The translations under genes and the position numbers were made by a program. Shown here one piece after another: positions 1,527-15,056 of a DNA stretch of 15,056 nucleotides. Numbering within the stretch: position 1 is the first letter of the stretch; each line of letters begins with the position of its first letter. The notes beneath the pieces were generated by a model. The model did not search any database, was not told where the DNA came from, and saw only the letters and a program-made list of their open reading frames with translations. Origin of the DNA: Armatimonadia bacterium. Its GTDB lineage: Bacteria; Armatimonadota; Zipacnadia; Zipacnadales; UBA11051. The DNA lies in the NCBI GenBank assembly GCA_039683575.1, contig JBDKRC010000200.1, forward strand, positions 1 to 15,056, given 5' to 3'.

Positions 1527-2405
1527 CTAGCCTCCGCCCCGCATCATCAACCCAGCCCCCACCAAAAGCCCCGTCACCGCCGCCACCACCACCACCATCG
1601 CCACCTTCTCCTGCCGGCTCAGCTTGAACGTCCCCGCGTTGGCGATCAGGAACCCCAGCACGATGAACGGCAGCAGCGGCAGCGCCGGCACCGCCGGGAG
1701 CAGCAGCACTGCCCCCATCCCCAGCAGCATCGCCACGAAGATCACCCAGAACGTCCGCCGCTCCCGCAGCCCGAATCTGTACATCCCCGCAAAGAAGAAC
1801 GCCAGGAAGATGAAGTCCCCCAGCCCCGCGGTCGCAATCGTCGCCAGCCCTGCGCCCCCGGCCGCCCCTGTCGCCGACCCCACCTGCGGAATCCCCACCG
1901 ACAGCTTCTCCACCAGCTTCGGCGCGTGCTTGAGCGCCTCACCCGTCGGCCCCATGAACACCGTGAAGATATCCGCCAGCCCGGCCATGATCGCCACGGG
2001 CAGCATCATGTTCCTCTCCCGCACGATCAGCGACAGCAGCCGCCCGAAGAACACGCACGCCACCATGAACAGCAGCCCCGCCAGCGCCGCCAACAGCGGC
2101 TTGAGCGAGGGATAGGCCTCCGCGTAGGGCCCCGACCCAAACCACAGCGACAGCGACACCAGCGCCCCCATGAAGTCCCACAGCGGTGCCAGCGGGAACC
2201 GCGCCATCTCCCGGATGATCAGCAGCGACAGCAGCAGGAAGACCACCGTCGCCACGGCGGTCCCCACCAGTGGCGGCACGCCCCGCACATAGGGCAGCCC
2301 CGAAAGCAGCCCCAGTGCCAACAGCGCATACAACAACACCCGCCAAACAGGCGGGCGCGAGCTTTGCGAACTATCCAGTTGAGGTGCGACAGTATGCTCA
2401 GTCAC
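1527..2405 (-). CDS. Polytopic membrane protein; putative GxGD-type (presenilin/signal-peptide-peptidase-like, A22) intramembrane aspartyl protease
   Basis: About 9 hydrophobic segments. Intramembrane Asp145 in 'GLADIFTVF.GP', GLGD197 in 'AGLGDFIF', and PALP at residues 240-243. GTG start with AGGA 5 nt upstream. Confidence 0.7.
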   Translation of the reverse strand: MTEHTVAPQLDSSQSSRPPVWRVLLYALLALGLLSGLPYVRGVPPLVGTAVATVVFLLLSLLIIREMARFPLAPLWDFMGALVSLSLWFGSGPYAEAYPSLKPLLAALAGLLFMVACVFFGRLLSLIVRERNMMLPVAIMAGLADIFTVFMGPTGEALKHAPKLVEKLSVGIPQVGSATGAAGGAGLATIATAGLGDFIFLAFFFAGMYRFGLRERRTFWVIFVAMLLGMGAVLLLPAVPALPLLPFIVLGFLIANAGTFKLSRQEKVAMVVVVAAVTGLLVGAGLMMRGGG

Positions 2406-5192: not shown

Positions 5193-5213
5193 ATGCGGCA
5201 CAGGGGGAGCTCC

Positions 5214-6821
5214 ATGGCTGTAGATTCGTTTCCATCCGTTCGTCCTCAACCGGCAGCGAACCCTCAGCCAGCCTCCGTGGTGCCCTGGCTTGGCGAGCTG
5301 GGCTTGGCCGGGGTCTGTCTGGGCTGGATTGCGATGATCCTCCTGTGGGACCACGCCTATCTGCTCCTGGCAATTGATGATGCCTTCTACTATTTGAAGA
5401 CCGCTGTCAACATCGCTCACGGTTATGGCAGCACCTTCGATCAGATCAACCAGACCAACGGCTACCACCCGCTCTGGATGGGGCTGATGGTCCTGCTCGC
5501 AAAGCTGACCTCCTCTGCCGCGCCCCTGATGCGCCTCGCGCTCATCACCGAGGTCCTCTGCGCCTACGCAGGACTGCGGGTACTCATGCGCTTCAGGTCA
5601 CTCCGCGCGTCTGCGCTGCCGGCATTCGCCGCTCTGGCCTTTGGCCACTTCTACGGGGCGAAGGTGCTGGTCAATGGCCTGGAAGCATCCCTGCAGTGGC
5701 TGCTGCTCTGCGTGACCCTCGTATATCTGTGGCGGCTGCAGAGCCGGGAGACGCTGCCCGCGCCTCGACAGGTCGCCCTGCTCGGAATCTTGTCGGGGCT
5801 GACGGTGTTGGCGCGCCTGGATGCCGTCTTCTTCGCCGTTCCGGCCTTGCTGACACCGCTCTGGCTGCCTGGCCCGCGTTGGCCTTCGGCTGCTCCAGCG
5901 GCCCGGCTCAAGCTTGCTCTCGTCGGGCTGGCGGCCTGCGGTTTGGTCCTGGCGCCCTATCTGGCCTGGAATGCTCTCGAGTTTGGCCACCTGATGCCAG
6001 TCAGTGGCGCTGTCAAAGCTGGGTGGGGCGGTTCTCGGGTCCCCCTGCTCATCCGCGCCGCGGGCGTGGCCTTTTTCCTGGCCATCGCGCTCTGGCTCAC
6101 GGTCGGTGCCCGCCGCCGTGTCCGGGTTGGTGCCGAACCCGGTGCCCTGTTCTGGTTAGCCCCGCTGGCGCTCTCCATCTGCTTCGTCAGCGCCTACAAC
6201 ATATGCTTCATTGGCCGGTGGCTACCGTATATCTGGTACGCCGTGCCGCACCTGCTGCTGCTTCTGCTCGCGCTGACTCTATGGTACCAGCATGGCAGCG
6301 CCTCGCCGACGCGGGCCCGGAACGCCTGCCTGGCTCTGGCGGTCTGGGTCCTGTTCTCGGTGTTGACGTGGCGCCAATGGTTGGACCCCGCCTGCTACGC
6401 CTTCGCCACCGAGAGTGTGCAAGCAGCCCGGTGGCTGGAAGACAACTCTGCCCCCGACGCGGTGGTGGGCAGTTGGGACTGCGGAATTCTCGGCGCCTAT
6501 ACCAGCCGCCGGCTGATGAACCTCGACGGCCTGATCAACTCCTGGGAGTACAAGGCCTACCTCGATAGCGACAAAACCGAGGAGTTCATCAGTAAGGTGC
6601 ACCCGGCTGACTACCTGGTCGAGCCCTTCTATCCCGAGCGGCTGAAGCGCTCCAACATGCTGTTCCGCGGAGTGCAGTTGGGGCAGTGGCACGTGCAGTA
6701 CTCGCAACCTCTGAGAAGGCGCTCCGTCATCAGGTCCTGGATAACCGAGGACCTGGTGTACCTTGTCCTGAGCCGTTCCGGCCCCGGCCCGCTGTTGCCG
6801 GAATATCTTGATAGCCTCTAG
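5214..6821 (+). CDS. Polytopic membrane protein, putative GT-C fold (ArnT/PMT-like) glycosyltransferase
   Basis: 'IDDAFYY...A.NIAHG.G..FD....TNGYHPLW' after TM1, then 'NGLE', 'LARLD', 'PYLAWN..EFG', about 11-12 TM helices and a soluble C-terminal 'D.G..G.......NLDGL.N' region. ATG at 5214 with a GGGGAG RBS; alternative ATG at 5193. Confidence 0.75.
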   Translation: MAVDSFPSVRPQPAANPQPASVVPWLGELGLAGVCLGWIAMILLWDHAYLLLAIDDAFYYLKTAVNIAHGYGSTFDQINQTNGYHPLWMGLMVLLAKLTSSAAPLMRLALITEVLCAYAGLRVLMRFRSLRASALPAFAALAFGHFYGAKVLVNGLEASLQWLLLCVTLVYLWRLQSRETLPAPRQVALLGILSGLTVLARLDAVFFAVPALLTPLWLPGPRWPSAAPAARLKLALVGLAACGLVLAPYLAWNALEFGHLMPVSGAVKAGWGGSRVPLLIRAAGVAFFLAIALWLTVGARRRVRVGAEPGALFWLAPLALSICFVSAYNICFIGRWLPYIWYAVPHLLLLLLALTLWYQHGSASPTRARNACLALAVWVLFSVLTWRQWLDPACYAFATESVQAARWLEDNSAPDAVVGSWDCGILGAYTSRRLMNLDGLINSWEYKAYLDSDKTEEFISKVHPADYLVEPFYPERLKRSNMLFRGVQLGQWHVQYSQPLRRRSVIRSWITEDLVYLVLSRSGPGPLLPEYLDSL

Positions 6822-8769: not shown

Positions 8770-8876
8770 GTGGGAGGGGCCACTGGCCCCGACGCCGTCA
8801 ATCCGCCGCTATCGCCGCCTGTAGGAGCGCTCACCAGAGCGCGATTTCTCTCGCCACCGCCGCCTGTAGGAGCCCT
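8770..8876 (+). repeat. REP cluster: family C (8770-8793) plus family B short/partial copies (8821-8844, 8866-8876)
   Basis: GTGGGAGGGGCCACTGGCCCCGAC, then the direct repeat CGCCGCCTGTAGGAGC at 8813-8828 and 8858-8873. Confidence 0.8.
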
Positions 8877-8880
8877 CTTC

Positions 8881-10110
8881 ATGCCCACCTCCTCCGACCT
8901 CCAGATCCTCCGCGACCTCGCCAAACAGGTCGCCGACATCGCCGCCGACCCCATCCAGGAAGAGCGCCGTAACCTCTGGACTGCCCACAACAGCTTCGAG
9001 CGCACCCGCCCGCTCATCATGTGCCCCTGGGAGGCTGCCTGGCCCGAGCATCCCGACGCCCCCAATCGCTGCGAGGACCCCTTCTTCCAGACCTACGAGA
9101 CCCAGCTCAAGCAGCGTATCTTCAAGCAGTCCCTCGGCGACGACACCGTGATTGACTCCTGGCTCATCGTCCCCGCCGTCAAGATCGGCCCCCCCAACGG
9201 CCTCTGGGGCGTCAGCCACACCTATACCACCAGCGGTGTCGCTGGCGGCGCCTGGAAACACCAGCCGGCCCTCAAGCAACTCTCCGATCTCGACAAGATG
9301 GTCGTCCCCAAACACGAAATCAACGAGGAAGCCACCGCCGCCAACTTCGCCAGGCTCGACGAAGCCCTCGGCGACCTCCTCACCATCACAGTCGACCGCG
9401 CCCCCACCTGGAGCGGCTGGCACGCCGACCTGTCCACCGACCTCTTCTACCTCCGCGGCCTCGACCAGCTCATGCTCGACATGACCGACAACGTCTCCTG
9501 GCTCCATGAACTGCTCAGCTTCATGCGCGACGGCATCCTCAAGTCCCACGACGAGGCCGAAGCCGCCGGCGACTGGAGCCTCATCAACCACAACGCCCAG
9601 GCCCAGTGCTACTGCCGCGAGCTGCCTCGCCCCGCCCCCAACGTCTACGGCGCCCCGCGCCACAACCTCTGGGCCTTCTTCGCCGCCCAGGAATACGCCC
9701 TCATCAGCCCGCGCATGCATGACGAGTTTCTGCTACAATACCAACTCCCGATCATGGAGAAGTTCGGGCTCATCTCCTACGGCTGCTGCGAGAACCTCAC
9801 CAACAAGGTGGACATGCTGCGCCAGGTCAAGAACCTCCGCCGCTTCTCGGTCACACCCATGGCCGACCCGGCCCGCTGCGCCGAAGAGATCGGCACCGAC
9901 TACATACTCTCCTGGCGCCCGAATCCCGCCGACATGATCTGCTGCGGCTTCTACCCCGACAAGATCCGGCGCATAGTAACCGAAGCCATGGAAGCCATGA
10001 AGGGCTGCCACGTAGACATCAATCTCAAAGACGTCCAGACCGTAGGCCACCAACCCAACCTCCTCCGAGACTGGGTAAAGCTCGTCCGCAGCATCACCGA
10101 CAACTACTAG
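8881..10110 (+). CDS. Uroporphyrinogen decarboxylase (URO-D)/CIMS-like superfamily protein of unknown function
   Basis: 'DLQILRDLAKQVADIAADP....RR.LW..HN', 'LRGLDQLMLDM.D....LHELL', 'ISPRMHDEFLLQYQ.P....FG...YGCCE.L' and 'SWRPNPA'. ATG at 8881 with AGGAG at 8868-8872. Confidence 0.75.
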   Translation: MPTSSDLQILRDLAKQVADIAADPIQEERRNLWTAHNSFERTRPLIMCPWEAAWPEHPDAPNRCEDPFFQTYETQLKQRIFKQSLGDDTVIDSWLIVPAVKIGPPNGLWGVSHTYTTSGVAGGAWKHQPALKQLSDLDKMVVPKHEINEEATAANFARLDEALGDLLTITVDRAPTWSGWHADLSTDLFYLRGLDQLMLDMTDNVSWLHELLSFMRDGILKSHDEAEAAGDWSLINHNAQAQCYCRELPRPAPNVYGAPRHNLWAFFAAQEYALISPRMHDEFLLQYQLPIMEKFGLISYGCCENLTNKVDMLRQVKNLRRFSVTPMADPARCAEEIGTDYILSWRPNPADMICCGFYPDKIRRIVTEAMEAMKGCHVDINLKDVQTVGHQPNLLRDWVKLVRSITDNY

Positions 10111-11753: not shown

Positions 11754-11868
11754 CCCCGCTCCCAAAGCCCTACGATAACCTACTACACCAATGAACACTG
11801 CGGTCACTGCCCCTGTCACACAAACCGGGACACCAACGCGGGGAGGGGTGAAAGAGAGGTACCGGACA

Positions 11869-12672
11869 ATGCGTCGCTCCCCGGCGCACGAAGCAATGCT
11901 CACCTTCCTTGCCCTCTGCCTGATCGGCCCTGCTTTGGCGACAGAGTACGCCTCTACCGACCCGCCGCAGCCCATTCTCGACCATCAGACGACCACCTCG
12001 ACCATCACCATCACCTCAACCAGGGTCATCACGGACCTCAACGTTAAGCTCAACATCCGCCACGCCTACACGGGTGACCTCGTCATCACCCTCACCGGCC
12101 CCGGTGGTGCTCCCGAGTGTGTCCTGATCGACAGGAAATGGGAGCCGGTTAGCGTTACCTTTGACGATGAGGGCGGCTGGAAGCCGGAGACGCCGCTGTC
12201 GGTCTTCGACGGGATGAGTCTGGCGGGCACCTGGACTTTGCGGGTGACAGACGAGTTGACCTCCGACGAGGGAACCCTCAACGGTTGGTCCCTGCTCGTC
12301 ACCCAGGCCGACCCTGACCGGACCCCTCCGGTCGTGACGATCGACTCCGTGGCCCCGACCGTGCTCTGGCCGCTGACCAACCGCCTGGTCCCGGTCATCC
12401 TCTGCGGCACAGCCACAGATGCCGGCGGCCAGGTAGCCCGCGTCTGGTGCGAGGTGGATGACAGCAACGGCGAGCTGGACGGAACCCACGAACTGACCCT
12501 CGACGGCAACGGCGAGTTCTACAAACAGCTACTACTGAGGGCTGCGCGCTCCAGGACCAAGTGTGCAGACCGGACCTACGAACTGAGCGTATACGCCGCA
12601 GACACCTCCGGCAACGTGTCAGCCCCGGCCTGTTGTACCGTCATTGTCCCGCGCAACCAGCCGCGCCGGTGA
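11869..12672 (+). CDS. Secreted proprotein-convertase P-domain protein with a C-terminal Ig-like beta domain
   Basis: Signal-peptide-like 'MLTFLALCLIGPALA'. P-domain 'ITDLNVKLNIRHAYTGDLVITLTGPGG...LSVFDGMSLAGTWTLRVTD....DEGTLNGWSL'. C-terminal 'DRTPPVVTI...P.VLWP...LRA.R......RTY......AD.SGN'. ATG at 11869 follows GAGAGGT; alternative ATG at 11896. Confidence 0.8.
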   Translation: MRRSPAHEAMLTFLALCLIGPALATEYASTDPPQPILDHQTTTSTITITSTRVITDLNVKLNIRHAYTGDLVITLTGPGGAPECVLIDRKWEPVSVTFDDEGGWKPETPLSVFDGMSLAGTWTLRVTDELTSDEGTLNGWSLLVTQADPDRTPPVVTIDSVAPTVLWPLTNRLVPVILCGTATDAGGQVARVWCEVDDSNGELDGTHELTLDGNGEFYKQLLLRAARSRTKCADRTYELSVYAADTSGNVSAPACCTVIVPRNQPRR

Positions 12673-12871: not shown

Positions 12872-12972
<101 letters not shown>

Positions 12973-13110: not shown

Positions 13111-13929
13111 CTACCCCATCCCGCCCCCGCGCCCCGCCATCATCACTATGACGGCGATGTTCGCCAAGACCCCCACACTCCCCAGAACTATCGCCCACAT
13201 CGCCTTCGACCGCGCGGACGTCGCCGTCAGCCTCCGGATATTGGCGTCCGCGAGGATCCTCGCCCCCATCACAATCGCCACCACCCCGGGCCCAGGCAGG
13301 CAACACACCAGTATTCCGAGAATCGCAATGATCAGCGCCGTGGTGCCCCGCCCATCCAACTCCGCCTCCTGCGGATTGAACCCCATCTCCCCAAGCACAT
13401 CCGCCACCGGCCGCTGCGGCGTCACGGGCCTCGTCGTCGGCAGCCCTCCCCCTCCGCCAAAGGTCGGCGCGGGCGTCGGCGCCACTCCCCGGCACCCATA
13501 GGTCGTACAGCCCTGATTCTCGGCCCAGCAATCCGCATGATGCGGCAGCTTGCAGGCCGGGCAGGTCATCACCTGTTCTCCCGGCTTCAAGGGAAACCGG
13601 CAGTACGGGCAGGTCTTCCCAATCTCCTCTTCGGTAGCAGGATGAACCCCCTGCACGACCGGCGCACTCGGCCCGGCAGTGGCAGACGGTTCCTGGCTCT
13701 CGATGACAATGCCATCATCAGCCAGGTCAGGTGGCGCGCCGAAGGGTCGATAAGGTGGGGGAGAGGGACGTGCTGGCTCCGGACGTGACGGAGCGGGCGC
13801 CTGAGGGGCTTCGGGAGCCGCAGCCCCCGGCGTCTCCCGGCGCACGGGCAGACCAAAGATCTGCTGACCGCACTTGGGACAAAAGCGGCCCTGTACTCGA
13901 ATGTTCTGCTGACAATAAGGGCAGCGCAT
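13111..13929 (-). CDS. Membrane-anchored RING-finger protein (N-terminal zinc ribbon, Pro-rich linker, Prok-RING_1-like domain, C-terminal 2-TM DUF4190-like region); putative E3 ligase
   Basis: N-terminal CPYC...CPKC. RING-like CPYC-x12-CPAC-x3-HH-x2-CW-x5-C-x4-C at about 13492-13611. Two hydrophobic segments at the C-terminus. Confidence 0.82.
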   Translation of the reverse strand: MRCPYCQQNIRVQGRFCPKCGQQIFGLPVRRETPGAAAPEAPQAPAPSRPEPARPSPPPYRPFGAPPDLADDGIVIESQEPSATAGPSAPVVQGVHPATEEEIGKTCPYCRFPLKPGEQVMTCPACKLPHHADCWAENQGCTTYGCRGVAPTPAPTFGGGGGLPTTRPVTPQRPVADVLGEMGFNPQEAELDGRGTTALIIAILGILVCCLPGPGVVAIVMGARILADANIRRLTATSARSKAMWAIVLGSVGVLANIAVIVMMAGRGGGMG

Positions 13930-13954
13930 GTATTAGGTGTACAACCTCAACCGC

Positions 13955-14131
13955 GTAGGTCGGTTCGTCTCGAACCGACATTCCAACCCATCTAGCCCCT
14001 CCCCGCCCAACTCCCAATCCCCTGTGGGAGGGGTCACTGCCCCCGTCGGCCCCCCCCAACCAGCGTGTCATCCTGACGAGCGTCCTCCCAGCGTGTCATC
14101 CTGAGGAGCGGCGTCAGCGACGAAGGATCTC
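13955..14131 (+). repeat. Intergenic REP cluster between E2 and RING genes: family A (13955-13979), family C (14024-14047), TGTCATCCTGA-type element (14060-14131)
   Basis: GTAGGTCGGTTCGTCTCGAACCGAC; GTGGGAGGGGTCACTGCCCCCGTC; and CCAGCGTGTCATCCTGA twice (14060, 14088), the second copy ending in GAAGGATCTC. Confidence 0.8.
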
Positions 14132-14199
14132 CGCCACCTTCCCCTCATCCCCCACCCCCGCCGTTGCCTTCCCTGATCCCTGACCCCTGACCCCTGCCT

Positions 14200-14745
14200 C
14201 TACCCCAACTCAATCCCCAAGTCATCCCCGTCCCCCTCTTCTTTCTCCTCCTCCAGGTCACCCAACTCAATATCCAACTCCACTTCCGGCTGATACAGGT
14301 CTTTGGTATCCACCGGCAGCAAATGGGCATTCTGCTCGGCCCAGTGCGCGGCGACGGCATTGAGCGGGCTCTTGGGGTTGTAGTCCTGGTACATGATCAT
14401 CTGACCGATCTTGATGATGATGTCCACGACGGTCTCCCCGGCGGCCCAGAAGTCTCCGATGCAGATATAGCTCCCGAAGTTCGGGTGGAAGATCGGCGTC
14501 TCGAGCACACACTTGGGCTTCTCGCGCGGGTAGTCCTTGTGCAGATAGATCCGCGCCCGGTGATAGTCACGGGTCTTGGGCCGGTTGGTGGTAGGATCGA
14601 GTTCGAGCCCGCGAACGCGGTACTCGATCACATACTCCTCCGTTGGATCGCCGGCTCCGGGTGTCACGGTAATATAAGTGTGCCCTGAAAACTCATTCAG
14701 GACGGCCTGGTAATCCGAATAGATGCGGCGCAATCGAGCATTCAT
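14200..14745 (-). CDS. Ubiquitin-conjugating enzyme E2 (UBC fold)-like protein with acidic C-terminal tail
   Basis: 181 aa: helix-1 'RLRRIYSDY', 'IYLHKDYPREKP...ETPIFHPN' (HPN at 87-89), candidate catalytic Cys95 in 'YICIGDFW', and 'YNPKSPLNAVAA'. ATG at 14745 with GGGGA upstream; the ORF-track start at 14928 is probably too long. Confidence 0.88.
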   Translation of the reverse strand: MNARLRRIYSDYQAVLNEFSGHTYITVTPGAGDPTEEYVIEYRVRGLELDPTTNRPKTRDYHRARIYLHKDYPREKPKCVLETPIFHPNFGSYICIGDFWAAGETVVDIIIKIGQMIMYQDYNPKSPLNAVAAHWAEQNAHLLPVDTKDLYQPEVELDIELGDLEEEKEEGDGDDLGIELG

Positions 14746-14815: not shown

Positions 14816-15056
14816 GGAGCCACCTCGCCGCCCGGCCGCCGGAGGGGCCGAGCTTCAGCCGGCCCGCCGTCATCCCCGATCCACCAATGTGCCCTCGGAG
14901 GGGCCGCATGCGCAGCCTCATCGCGCATCCGGCCCAGCCGTTATCCCCGACCAACCCTCCCCCTCACCTCGCCATCTCTAGAACCCCCCAACCCCCTCGC
15001 CAGGTTCCACCCCACACCTCCCCCCCTGCCAAGCCACGCCTGAAAATGGGGACTGA

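Follow-up and report, generated by a model that had tools for sequence, protein, structure and literature searches.

The 15,056-bp contig JBDKRC010000200.1 of an Armatimonadia bacterium (hereafter the window; it is the entire contig C200 of an assembly, G000, of 6.2 Mb in 352 contigs with ∼64% G+C) carries two genes encoding a ubiquitin-conjugating enzyme, E2a, and a RING protein with a membrane anchor. I propose that these are likely to be the E2/E3 module of a chromosomal, membrane-associated conjugation system for a ubiquitin-like protein (Ubl) in the Armatimonadota, an assignment made from sequences and predicted structures. It is based on observed domain identities, catalytic residues, gene content, conserved gene linkage and an inheritance that tracks taxonomy. 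An earlier reading of the same DNA, made from its letters only (the sequence-only reading), had suggested a ubiquitination-like module formed by this pair. The identities of the E2 and RING proteins and their adjacency hold, but the module is not self-contained: the pair belongs at the 3′ end of a larger operon from which it has been detached, and the other genes of that operon are on another contig of the same genome, C309.

E2a is confirmed as an E2 of the UBC type, and is predicted to form a thioester with a Ubl. The window open reading frame (ORF) matches Pfam UQ_con (PF00179, cut-off 27 bits) with 34.1 bits, and with 34.0 bits in a genome search, and the corresponding NCBI protein is named ‘ubiquitin-conjugating enzyme E2’. 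Every UBC hallmark listed by the sequence-only reading is present, namely Y72-P73-x3-P77, P84-I-F-H-P-N89, C95 and S126-P-L-N129-A-V-A-A. Among 37 aligned homologues, to which the start MNARL is common, residues H87, P88, N89, C95, D98 and W100 are invariant. A phmmer search against PDB sequences returned 224 chains at E ≤ 1, the best 60 of which are eukaryotic E2-type enzymes (for ubiquitin, SUMO and NEDD8), and Cys95 pairs with a cysteine in both PDB E2 alignments inspected. The AlphaFold2 (AF2) model possesses the UBC alpha/beta fold (predicted local distance difference score, pLDDT, 86.6; predicted TM-score, pTM, 0.79), with a tail that is disordered past ∼residue 160, and Foldseek identified 396 PDB matches at E ≤ 0.001, of which all those listed are E2-type enzymes.

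The RING protein matches Pfam Prok-RING_1 (PF14446, cut-off 29.1 bits) over residues 103–145 with 37.5 bits, and with 41.4 bits in the genome search, so that both profiles proposed by the sequence-only reading score above their cut-offs. The eight zinc ligands it had counted are C107, C110, C123, C126, H131, C134, C141 and C146, in a C4HC3 pattern; in an alignment of 33 homologues seven of these are invariant and C110 is present in at least 90%, H130 is conserved too, and W135 and P108 are invariant. The two hydrophobic stretches are also found, and the N-terminal zinc ribbon is recognizable, with a profile match below the cut-off and its four cysteines (C3, C6, C17, C20) invariant in 33/33 sequences; a Pro-rich linker follows it. 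Certain homologues match PF13828. In the AF2 model, residues 101–140 have a pLDDT of 92–97, and helices span residues 186–207, 214–231 and 237–267. The top 13 Foldseek matches of this model are all eukaryotic RING E3 domains, several of them RING-H2, and its structural neighbours include RNF38, RNF12, RNF13 (at ranks 3, 10 and 21), Ark2C/RNF165 and RMR1. The probabilities are 0.93–1.00 and the TM-scores per target 0.44–0.60, with E-values of 0.085–0.31, none of which reaches E ≤ 0.001; phmmer found no match to PDB sequences at E ≤ 1.

Searches of the whole genome place another UQ_con gene on C309, together with an E1, a pair of JAB genes and a weak match to the ubiquitin family; there, Pfam matches on ORFs give the order E2b, trypsin-like protease, Ubl, ThiF E1, JAB1, JAB2, zinc-ribbon/TPR protein and gidB. 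The E1, the two JAB peptidases and the beta-grasp Ubl ending in glycine, for which the sequence-only reading had suggested looking, are thus all encoded, and the genome possesses the five components Ubl, E1, E2, RING and JAB, split over C200 and C309 and not in a single operon. E2b is 43% identical to E2a, and the protease is HtrA/DegS-like by NCBIfam. The Ubl is an 89-residue, YukD-like protein with the C-terminus ...LRLQPEITAG, and its family is named ‘EsaB/YukD family protein’ at NCBI. It is 72–98% identical across the order, and 40 of its 89 positions are invariant among 26 aligned sequences, the C-terminal T-A-G included. It ends exactly at Gly89 in 19 of the 26; the other seven have 1–15 extra residues, and these forms would need trimming by a peptidase, as precursors. 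The H-x-H...S...D (JAMM) motif, read from the sequences, is kept in both JAB1 and JAB2.

The organization of the complete operon is seen in relatives, for which I examined gene linkage by tblastn on fetched loci. In 16 loci (L043–L047, L049, L056–L063, L065 and L066), the genes for the protease, Ubl, E1, one or two JABs and E2a follow each other on one contig and one strand. The RING gene comes after E2a in 14 of these 16 loci carrying Ubl and E1, and is followed by a third JAB gene in some. Adjacency of E2 and RING genes, whose conservation the sequence-only reading had proposed to check, is maintained in 24 of 29 relatives' loci, with the RING gene at most 1.5 kb downstream of E2a. Of the five remaining loci, two are truncated at a contig end; three (in G012, G040 and G019) belong to genomes with 2, 1 and 6 Prok-RING_1 matches elsewhere, respectively. 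The two halves of the cluster lie on separate contigs in G000–G004 only, that is in the window's genus and one sister genus. Since on C309 the JAB genes are followed by the TPR gene and gidB, this split is more than an effect of contig ends and reflects a rearrangement. In the order, E2b was found in a single family only (f1, 13 loci). Two genomes from other families of the phylum, G174 and G047, show the same layout, starting (5′) with an E2b-like gene and ending (3′) with E2a; their fetched stretches contain five and two RING-domain matches, respectively, most of them upstream of E2a.

E2a homologues are present in 32 of 41 related genomes, and because of this and of the RING gene downstream in most loci, the association of the two is more than chance. 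All 31 sampled genomes from families f1–f5 of the order have E2a, and no homologue was found in the sampled genomes of families f6 (0/5) or f7 (0/4) of this 41-genome set. For full-length best matches, the identity to E2a is 80–82% within the genus, 65–79% within the family and 56–69% in the order's other families. In a tree of 27 E1 sequences, the family labels require six changes, the lowest number possible, and none of 200 shuffles was as good, a result that demonstrates clustering but does not prove vertical descent, as related genomes share labels. The system tracks taxonomy.

From these components I infer the biochemical steps, topology and targets of the following cascade, in which the most economical assumption is made, namely that the canonical reactions take place on the inner side of the membrane. 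The ThiF-type E1 would adenylate the C-terminal Gly89 of the Ubl, and hand it as a thioester to Cys95 of E2a. The RING protein would be held by its anchor in the cytoplasmic membrane, its zinc ribbon and RING domain being on the cytoplasmic side, where the RING may bind the E2a–Ubl thioester and promote transfer of the Ubl to lysines on proteins located along the inner membrane surface. The sequence-only reading had likewise proposed E2–RING binding and membrane-proximal substrates, and both would be part of this scheme. As possible targets or partners I consider the cytoplasmic tails of four co-encoded membrane proteins, namely the HtrA/DegS-like protease, JAB1, the zinc-ribbon/TPR protein and a protein with an FHA domain (described below). 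The two JAB peptidases would remove the Ubl, and process the forms made with a C-terminal extension. A hydropathy scan is consistent with a membrane setting, with one or two hydrophobic segments in each of the RING protein, the protease, JAB1 and the TPR protein, and none in E1, E2a, E2b, the Ubl and JAB2. The protease consists of an N-terminal hydrophobic leader, the catalytic domain, one transmembrane helix (275–303) and a Pro-rich tail; given the order of leader and helix, the catalytic domain would therefore face outward and the tail would be cytoplasmic.

Termini or linkers of nearly every component, except the Ubl and E2b (0/13), possess an acidic motif with alternating hydrophobic residues, resembling DDLxIEL. 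The tail of E2a has it at E154–L161 (‘EVELDIEL’) and D174–G181 (‘DDLGIELG’). The copy at the extreme C-terminus (DDLGIELG-like) is found in 23/23 orthologues, with D175, I178 and L180 at least 90% conserved among the 37 aligned homologues, and a second copy, LYQPEVELDIEL-like, is located directly after the UBC domain. The extreme C-terminus of the protease has a [DE]DLSDIDIEL-like motif in 22/22 orthologues. By eye, it is also seen immediately before a conserved EDRY at the N-terminus of E1, at most JAB N-termini and, in two copies, at the N-terminus of the TPR protein, and 31 of 33 RING sequences have an acidic, alternating-hydrophobic stretch in their linker. A strict regular expression, applied within 45 residues of a terminus, matches 56 of 4,353 ORFs (1.3%) of a crude greedy proteome and four of the nine system proteins of this genome, the others having looser variants or none. 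It is possible, albeit doubtful at present, that the motif is a common docking handle, whose most likely ligand would be the Ubl, in the manner of SUMO-interacting motifs (SIM), LC3-interacting regions (LIR) and UFM1-interacting motifs (UFIM), and which would gather the machinery at the membrane. Complex prediction for the Ubl with the E2a tail (residues 141–181) gave an ipSAE of 0.19 in both runs, relative to a mark of 0.32, and is uninformative either way on binding. If a docking handle, it would imply a vertically inherited, transmembrane signalling or quality-control ubiquitin system, coupling an envelope protease to cytoplasmic Ubl tagging, and not a phage defence.

Ten other proteins of the genome with a terminal motif match were scanned, and nine look like chance matches, comprising a beta-helix protein, a carbohydrate-binding module, a metallo-beta-lactamase-fold protein, a pilin-like protein, a PurL-like protein, a GNAT protein, an AAA/DUF4143 protein, ClpC and one without a family. 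The ClpC-like AAA+ unfoldase (C181:9759–12218) had hinted at a link to proteolysis, but was rejected as a motif carrier, as a similar C-terminus is present in 8/8 orthologues fetched from f6 and f7, the two families in which searches returned no E2a; its motif-like C-terminus is probably part of the folded D2-small domain. Only the FHA protein, a membrane protein with the motif at its N-terminus and a C-terminal FHA domain (C204:28947–30149, minus strand; L080), was linked to the system. In G024, a gene immediately downstream of the cluster (L048 5391–6509) encodes an FHA protein with which it shares 34% identity (E = 7e-37). The FHA protein of C204 thus probably represents a third part of the system that has been dispersed.

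Other RING genes were also encountered. The genome encodes a second RING protein, on C63 (L012 2761–3891, minus strand), in which a Prok-RING_1 match of 31.4 bits, above the cut-off, is followed by ankyrin repeats; it looks like a soluble E3 of the substrate-adaptor type. Its gene is at the contig end, where the upstream neighbours are lost. Five Prok-RING_1 domain matches lie in and beside one cluster in G174 (L122 7114–9349 and 12287–12451), and G019 has five on its contig C157, four of them above the cut-off, plus one elsewhere. These expansions look like E3 diversification. In one relative (G008, L043 7992–8369, plus strand), a HicB-like antitoxin gene is located between the E1 and JAB genes of the cluster. 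Lastly, a proteasome search gave a single PF00227 match in the genome; matches to this family occur in E. coli and B. subtilis as well, and a single such gene does not make a 20S alpha/beta pair.

A number of observations weigh against the proposed membrane-associated conjugation module. E2a-like genes have a scattered occurrence in the phylum (in 40 of the 301 genomes sampled) and, in that sample, are missing from family f6 of the same order (0/10), a distribution that could fit an accessory or defence role. By Pfam the Ubl scores 53 bits against YukD and only 20 bits, below the cut-off, against ubiquitin. In canonical RING E3s, including many active ones, an arginine or lysine linchpin follows the last zinc ligand, whereas the residue after C146 is variable (R, Q, S, T, A or P in the 33 homologues). 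The topology is uncertain as well, as the anchor has a positively charged loop between its hydrophobic stretches, the first of which might form a helical hairpin. Lastly, 270 bp with repeats separate the two genes. Small RNA-library contigs, the only ones in three metatranscriptome runs of one study, cover the RING gene at 13735–13920 (no mismatch), 13545–13713 (3 mismatches) and 13289–13526 (10 mismatches); they span pieces of this gene and a single 40-nt piece of E2a, and such libraries can contain DNA. These contigs thus support no claim of transcription or of co-transcription.

Three other explanations have to be considered. The first is an anti-phage or conflict system, similar to Bil or to Cap2/Cap3 of the cyclic-oligonucleotide-based anti-phage signalling system (CBASS), in which E2a and the RING protein would tag phage proteins or trigger abortive infection. 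According to the available part of one report, the characterized bacterial Ubl-conjugation systems act in phage defence, with other E1/E2/RING/deubiquitinase operon families predicted to do likewise (PMC10557695), and operons of this type are mobile according to a proposal by Aravind and colleagues (PMC3417536). The patchy distribution and the antitoxin gene in the cluster of G008 point in the same direction, as do weak domain-level matches of the protease to defence-system proteases in PADLOC. However, no PADLOC model matches E2a, E2b, the RING protein, the Ubl or the TPR protein, in a version from 2023 that newer defence systems would escape; E1 and JAB are matched at domain level only, and E1 reaches a mere 21.7 bits against BilD. 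Moreover, the E1 tree groups by family, the identity of E2a drops with taxonomic rank, every sampled genome of families f1–f5 carries the system, and the Ubl is conserved across the order to a degree unlike that of fast-evolving defence genes. The other genes of the window are housekeeping, as the sequence-only reading had noted (DnaJ, PrmA and an ABC permease by Pfam), and no mobile-element genes were seen among them. I therefore regard a defence role as unlikely.

In the second explanation, the RING-like protein is not an E3 but a zinc-finger membrane protein that acts as a receptor for the Ubl, as an anchor or as a substrate, and E2a needs no E3 to transfer the Ubl. This would account for the variable linchpin position, for the atypical C4HC3 pattern with a C-x4-C last pair, for the weak Foldseek E-values and for the three genomes where E2a has no adjacent RING gene. 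On the other hand, the best structural matches are exclusively RING domains of E3 ligases, with high probabilities, and the invariant W135 and P108 lie near the usual E2-contacting positions. The available text on an archaeal RING homologue reports that it needs I30 and W58 (PMC5654768). Each checked genome with E2a also has at least one Prok-RING_1 gene, and in other classes two to five RING genes within the cluster look like E3 diversification; a protein without E3 function is thus rather improbable. The third explanation, that E2a and the RING protein mimic eukaryotic proteins as effectors acting on the ubiquitin system of a host, or stem from contamination with eukaryotic DNA, could draw on the eukaryotic E2s that are the closest PDB sequence matches of E2a and on the RING/U-box effectors of intracellular bacteria (PMC3417536), but is made very unlikely by the co-encoded cognate Ubl, E1 and JABs, as well as by the bacterial neighbours and ∼64% G+C of the contig, the orthologues in related genomes and a RING protein N-terminus that is a zinc ribbon and not a signal peptide.

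The features of the region are collected in Table 1. Both genes are on the minus strand, with the same boundaries as in the sequence-only reading, which had also described them as co-oriented neighbours separated by repeats. The 16-mers of positions 13951–13980 in the spacer have 14–30 copies in the genome, and a 7-bp repeat is present at 14171–14196. In relatives the spacer is ∼90–110 bp, and the repeats enlarge that of the window to 270 bp. Dispersed short elements are located at 13951–13980, 14094–14131 and 14840–14875, one of them a palindrome; the microsatellite is outside the system, and its 16-mers have ∼100 copies genome-wide. Most 16-mers of the microsatellite and dispersed elements taken together have ∼14–115 copies. 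The same short repeats appear in unrelated contigs of the RNA libraries.

Table 1. Positions of the two genes, their encoded domains and motifs, and the repeats around them, in window coordinates.
Feature	Position	Strand	Evidence
E2a, UBC-type ubiquitin-conjugating enzyme, 181 aa	14200..14745	-	Pfam UQ_con, AF2, Foldseek
HPN motif of E2a, H87-P88-N89	14479..14487	-	Invariant 37/37
Cys95 codon of E2a, predicted thioester cysteine	14461..14463	-	Invariant 37/37; PDB alignment
Acidic disordered tail of E2a, two motif copies	14203..14286	-	pLDDT <50 at residues 166-175 and 179-181
E2a-RING spacer, 270 bp, dispersed short repeats	13930..14199	.	16-mer counts, Tandem Repeats Finder (TRF)
RING protein, membrane-anchored, 272 aa	13111..13929	-	Pfam Prok-RING_1; 99%-identical NCBI protein ‘RING finger protein’
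N-terminal zinc ribbon, residues 2-23 (C3, C6, C17, C20)	13861..13926	-	Zn_ribbon_3, E=8e-5, below cut-off
Linker motif of RING protein, D71-S78 ‘DDGIVIES’	13696..13719	-	Read by eye on alignment
RING domain, residues 103-146, C4HC3	13492..13623	-	Prok-RING_1, alignment, AF2, Foldseek
C-terminal membrane anchor, hydrophobic stretches 191-227 and 242-267	13129..13359	-	Hydropathy scan
(GCCGTT)16.5 microsatellite, 3′ of RING gene	12872..12972	.	TRF score 184

In addition to the housekeeping genes, the window encodes a P-domain (proprotein-convertase) protein at 11791–12672 (plus strand, 49.7 bits), convergent with the RING gene, for which no link to the Ubl system was seen. Three long ORFs, at 5193–6821 (plus strand, 542 aa), 8770–10110 (plus strand, 446 aa) and 1527–2405 (minus strand, 292 aa), have no Pfam match at E ≤ 0.01 and may be spurious in this G+C-rich DNA.

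Operons encoding a Ubl, E1, E2, RING and JAB in prokaryotes were reportedly predicted computationally by Burroughs, Iyer and Aravind (Mol Biosyst 2011), who are said to have defined Prok-RING_1 in the process. The Pfam description of this family places it in a neighbourhood with Ubl, E1, E2 and JAB genes, with transmembrane helices in its bacterial members, and a membrane-anchored RING next to these genes is thus what the family is meant to cover. The RING protein fits this description, having both the Ubl/E1/E2/JAB neighbourhood in relatives and a hydrophobic anchor. Together with the UBC-type E2 (HPN and Cys), the ThiF-type E1, the beta-grasp Ubl and the JABs, this adds a new member to the bacterial Ubl-E1-E2-RING-JAB operons that make up the Prok-RING_1 class. 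The system differs from these in the detachment of the E2a–RING pair, in this genus, and in its two E2 paralogues, and adds membrane partners of the zinc-ribbon/TPR and FHA types, the terminal motif, and an HtrA-like protease that is bitopic and has its tail in the cytoplasm. Its host phylum is the Armatimonadota. My searches of the full-text literature returned no experiments on any bacterial operon of the class; most subscription journals are outside this coverage, and such work may exist.

In eukaryotes, membrane-anchored RING ligases such as Hrd1 and MARCH work with soluble E2s. The arrangement proposed here would resemble that of the PA-TM-RING protein RNF13, with the RING on the cytoplasmic side of a membrane anchor, recruiting a soluble UBC E2. 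The RING protein is however not a member of these families, as no sequence relationship was detected beyond the RING fold, its anchor is C-terminal, and a zinc ribbon is added at its N-terminus.

Among experimentally studied systems, the cascade of the archaeon Caldiarchaeum subterraneum is, by analogy, the best guide to how the E2a–RING pair should work, since it shows that E1, E2 and RING proteins from one operon can act in this manner. According to the available text, its Ub, E1, E2, srfp (RING) and Rpn11 were reconstituted in vitro, with the E3 required for substrate modification (PMC5654768). The two systems appear to have in common an operon-encoded Ubl, E1, HPN-type E2, RING E3 and JAMM peptidase. 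The archaeal RING is described there as small and of the RING-H2 class, and the word ‘transmembrane’ is absent from the text of PMC5654768, whereas the RING protein here is C4HC3 and has a zinc ribbon and a membrane anchor. Similarly, the archaeal Ub is, in the same available text, a precursor with a di-Gly motif (PMC5654768), while the Ubl here ends in A-G and is YukD-like by Pfam.

The chemistry of E1, E2, Ubl and JAB is also shared with the bacterial Bil (BilABCD), Bub and CBASS Cap2/Cap3 systems, as presented in the available parts of two reports (PMC10557695, PMC11601603). These act in phage defence, and in the same parts of the reports are described as having no RING E3, with E2s that are diverged (CEHH motif) or fused to E1 (PMC10557695, PMC11601603). 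Compared with them, no E1–E2 fusion and no DUF6527 were found among the Pfam matches here, and PADLOC matches none of E2a, E2b, the Ubl and the RING protein.

RING-dependent ubiquitination has been reconstituted from an archaeon, and I found no bacterial counterpart in the literature. The lineage described here offers a compact set of small proteins for such a reconstitution, with a single Ubl and a single E1, two E2s, between one and six RING genes per genome, two to three JABs and a protease. Given a distribution that follows taxonomy, a membrane-based organization and the lack of a match to known defence systems, the system could reveal a non-defence function of ubiquitin-like conjugation in bacteria, and it bears on whether E2/RING catalysis predates eukaryotes. 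Relative to the systems compared above, it is distinguished by a detached E2–RING pair, two E2s, a membrane-centred architecture that includes an HtrA-like protease, and a motif shared between its components.

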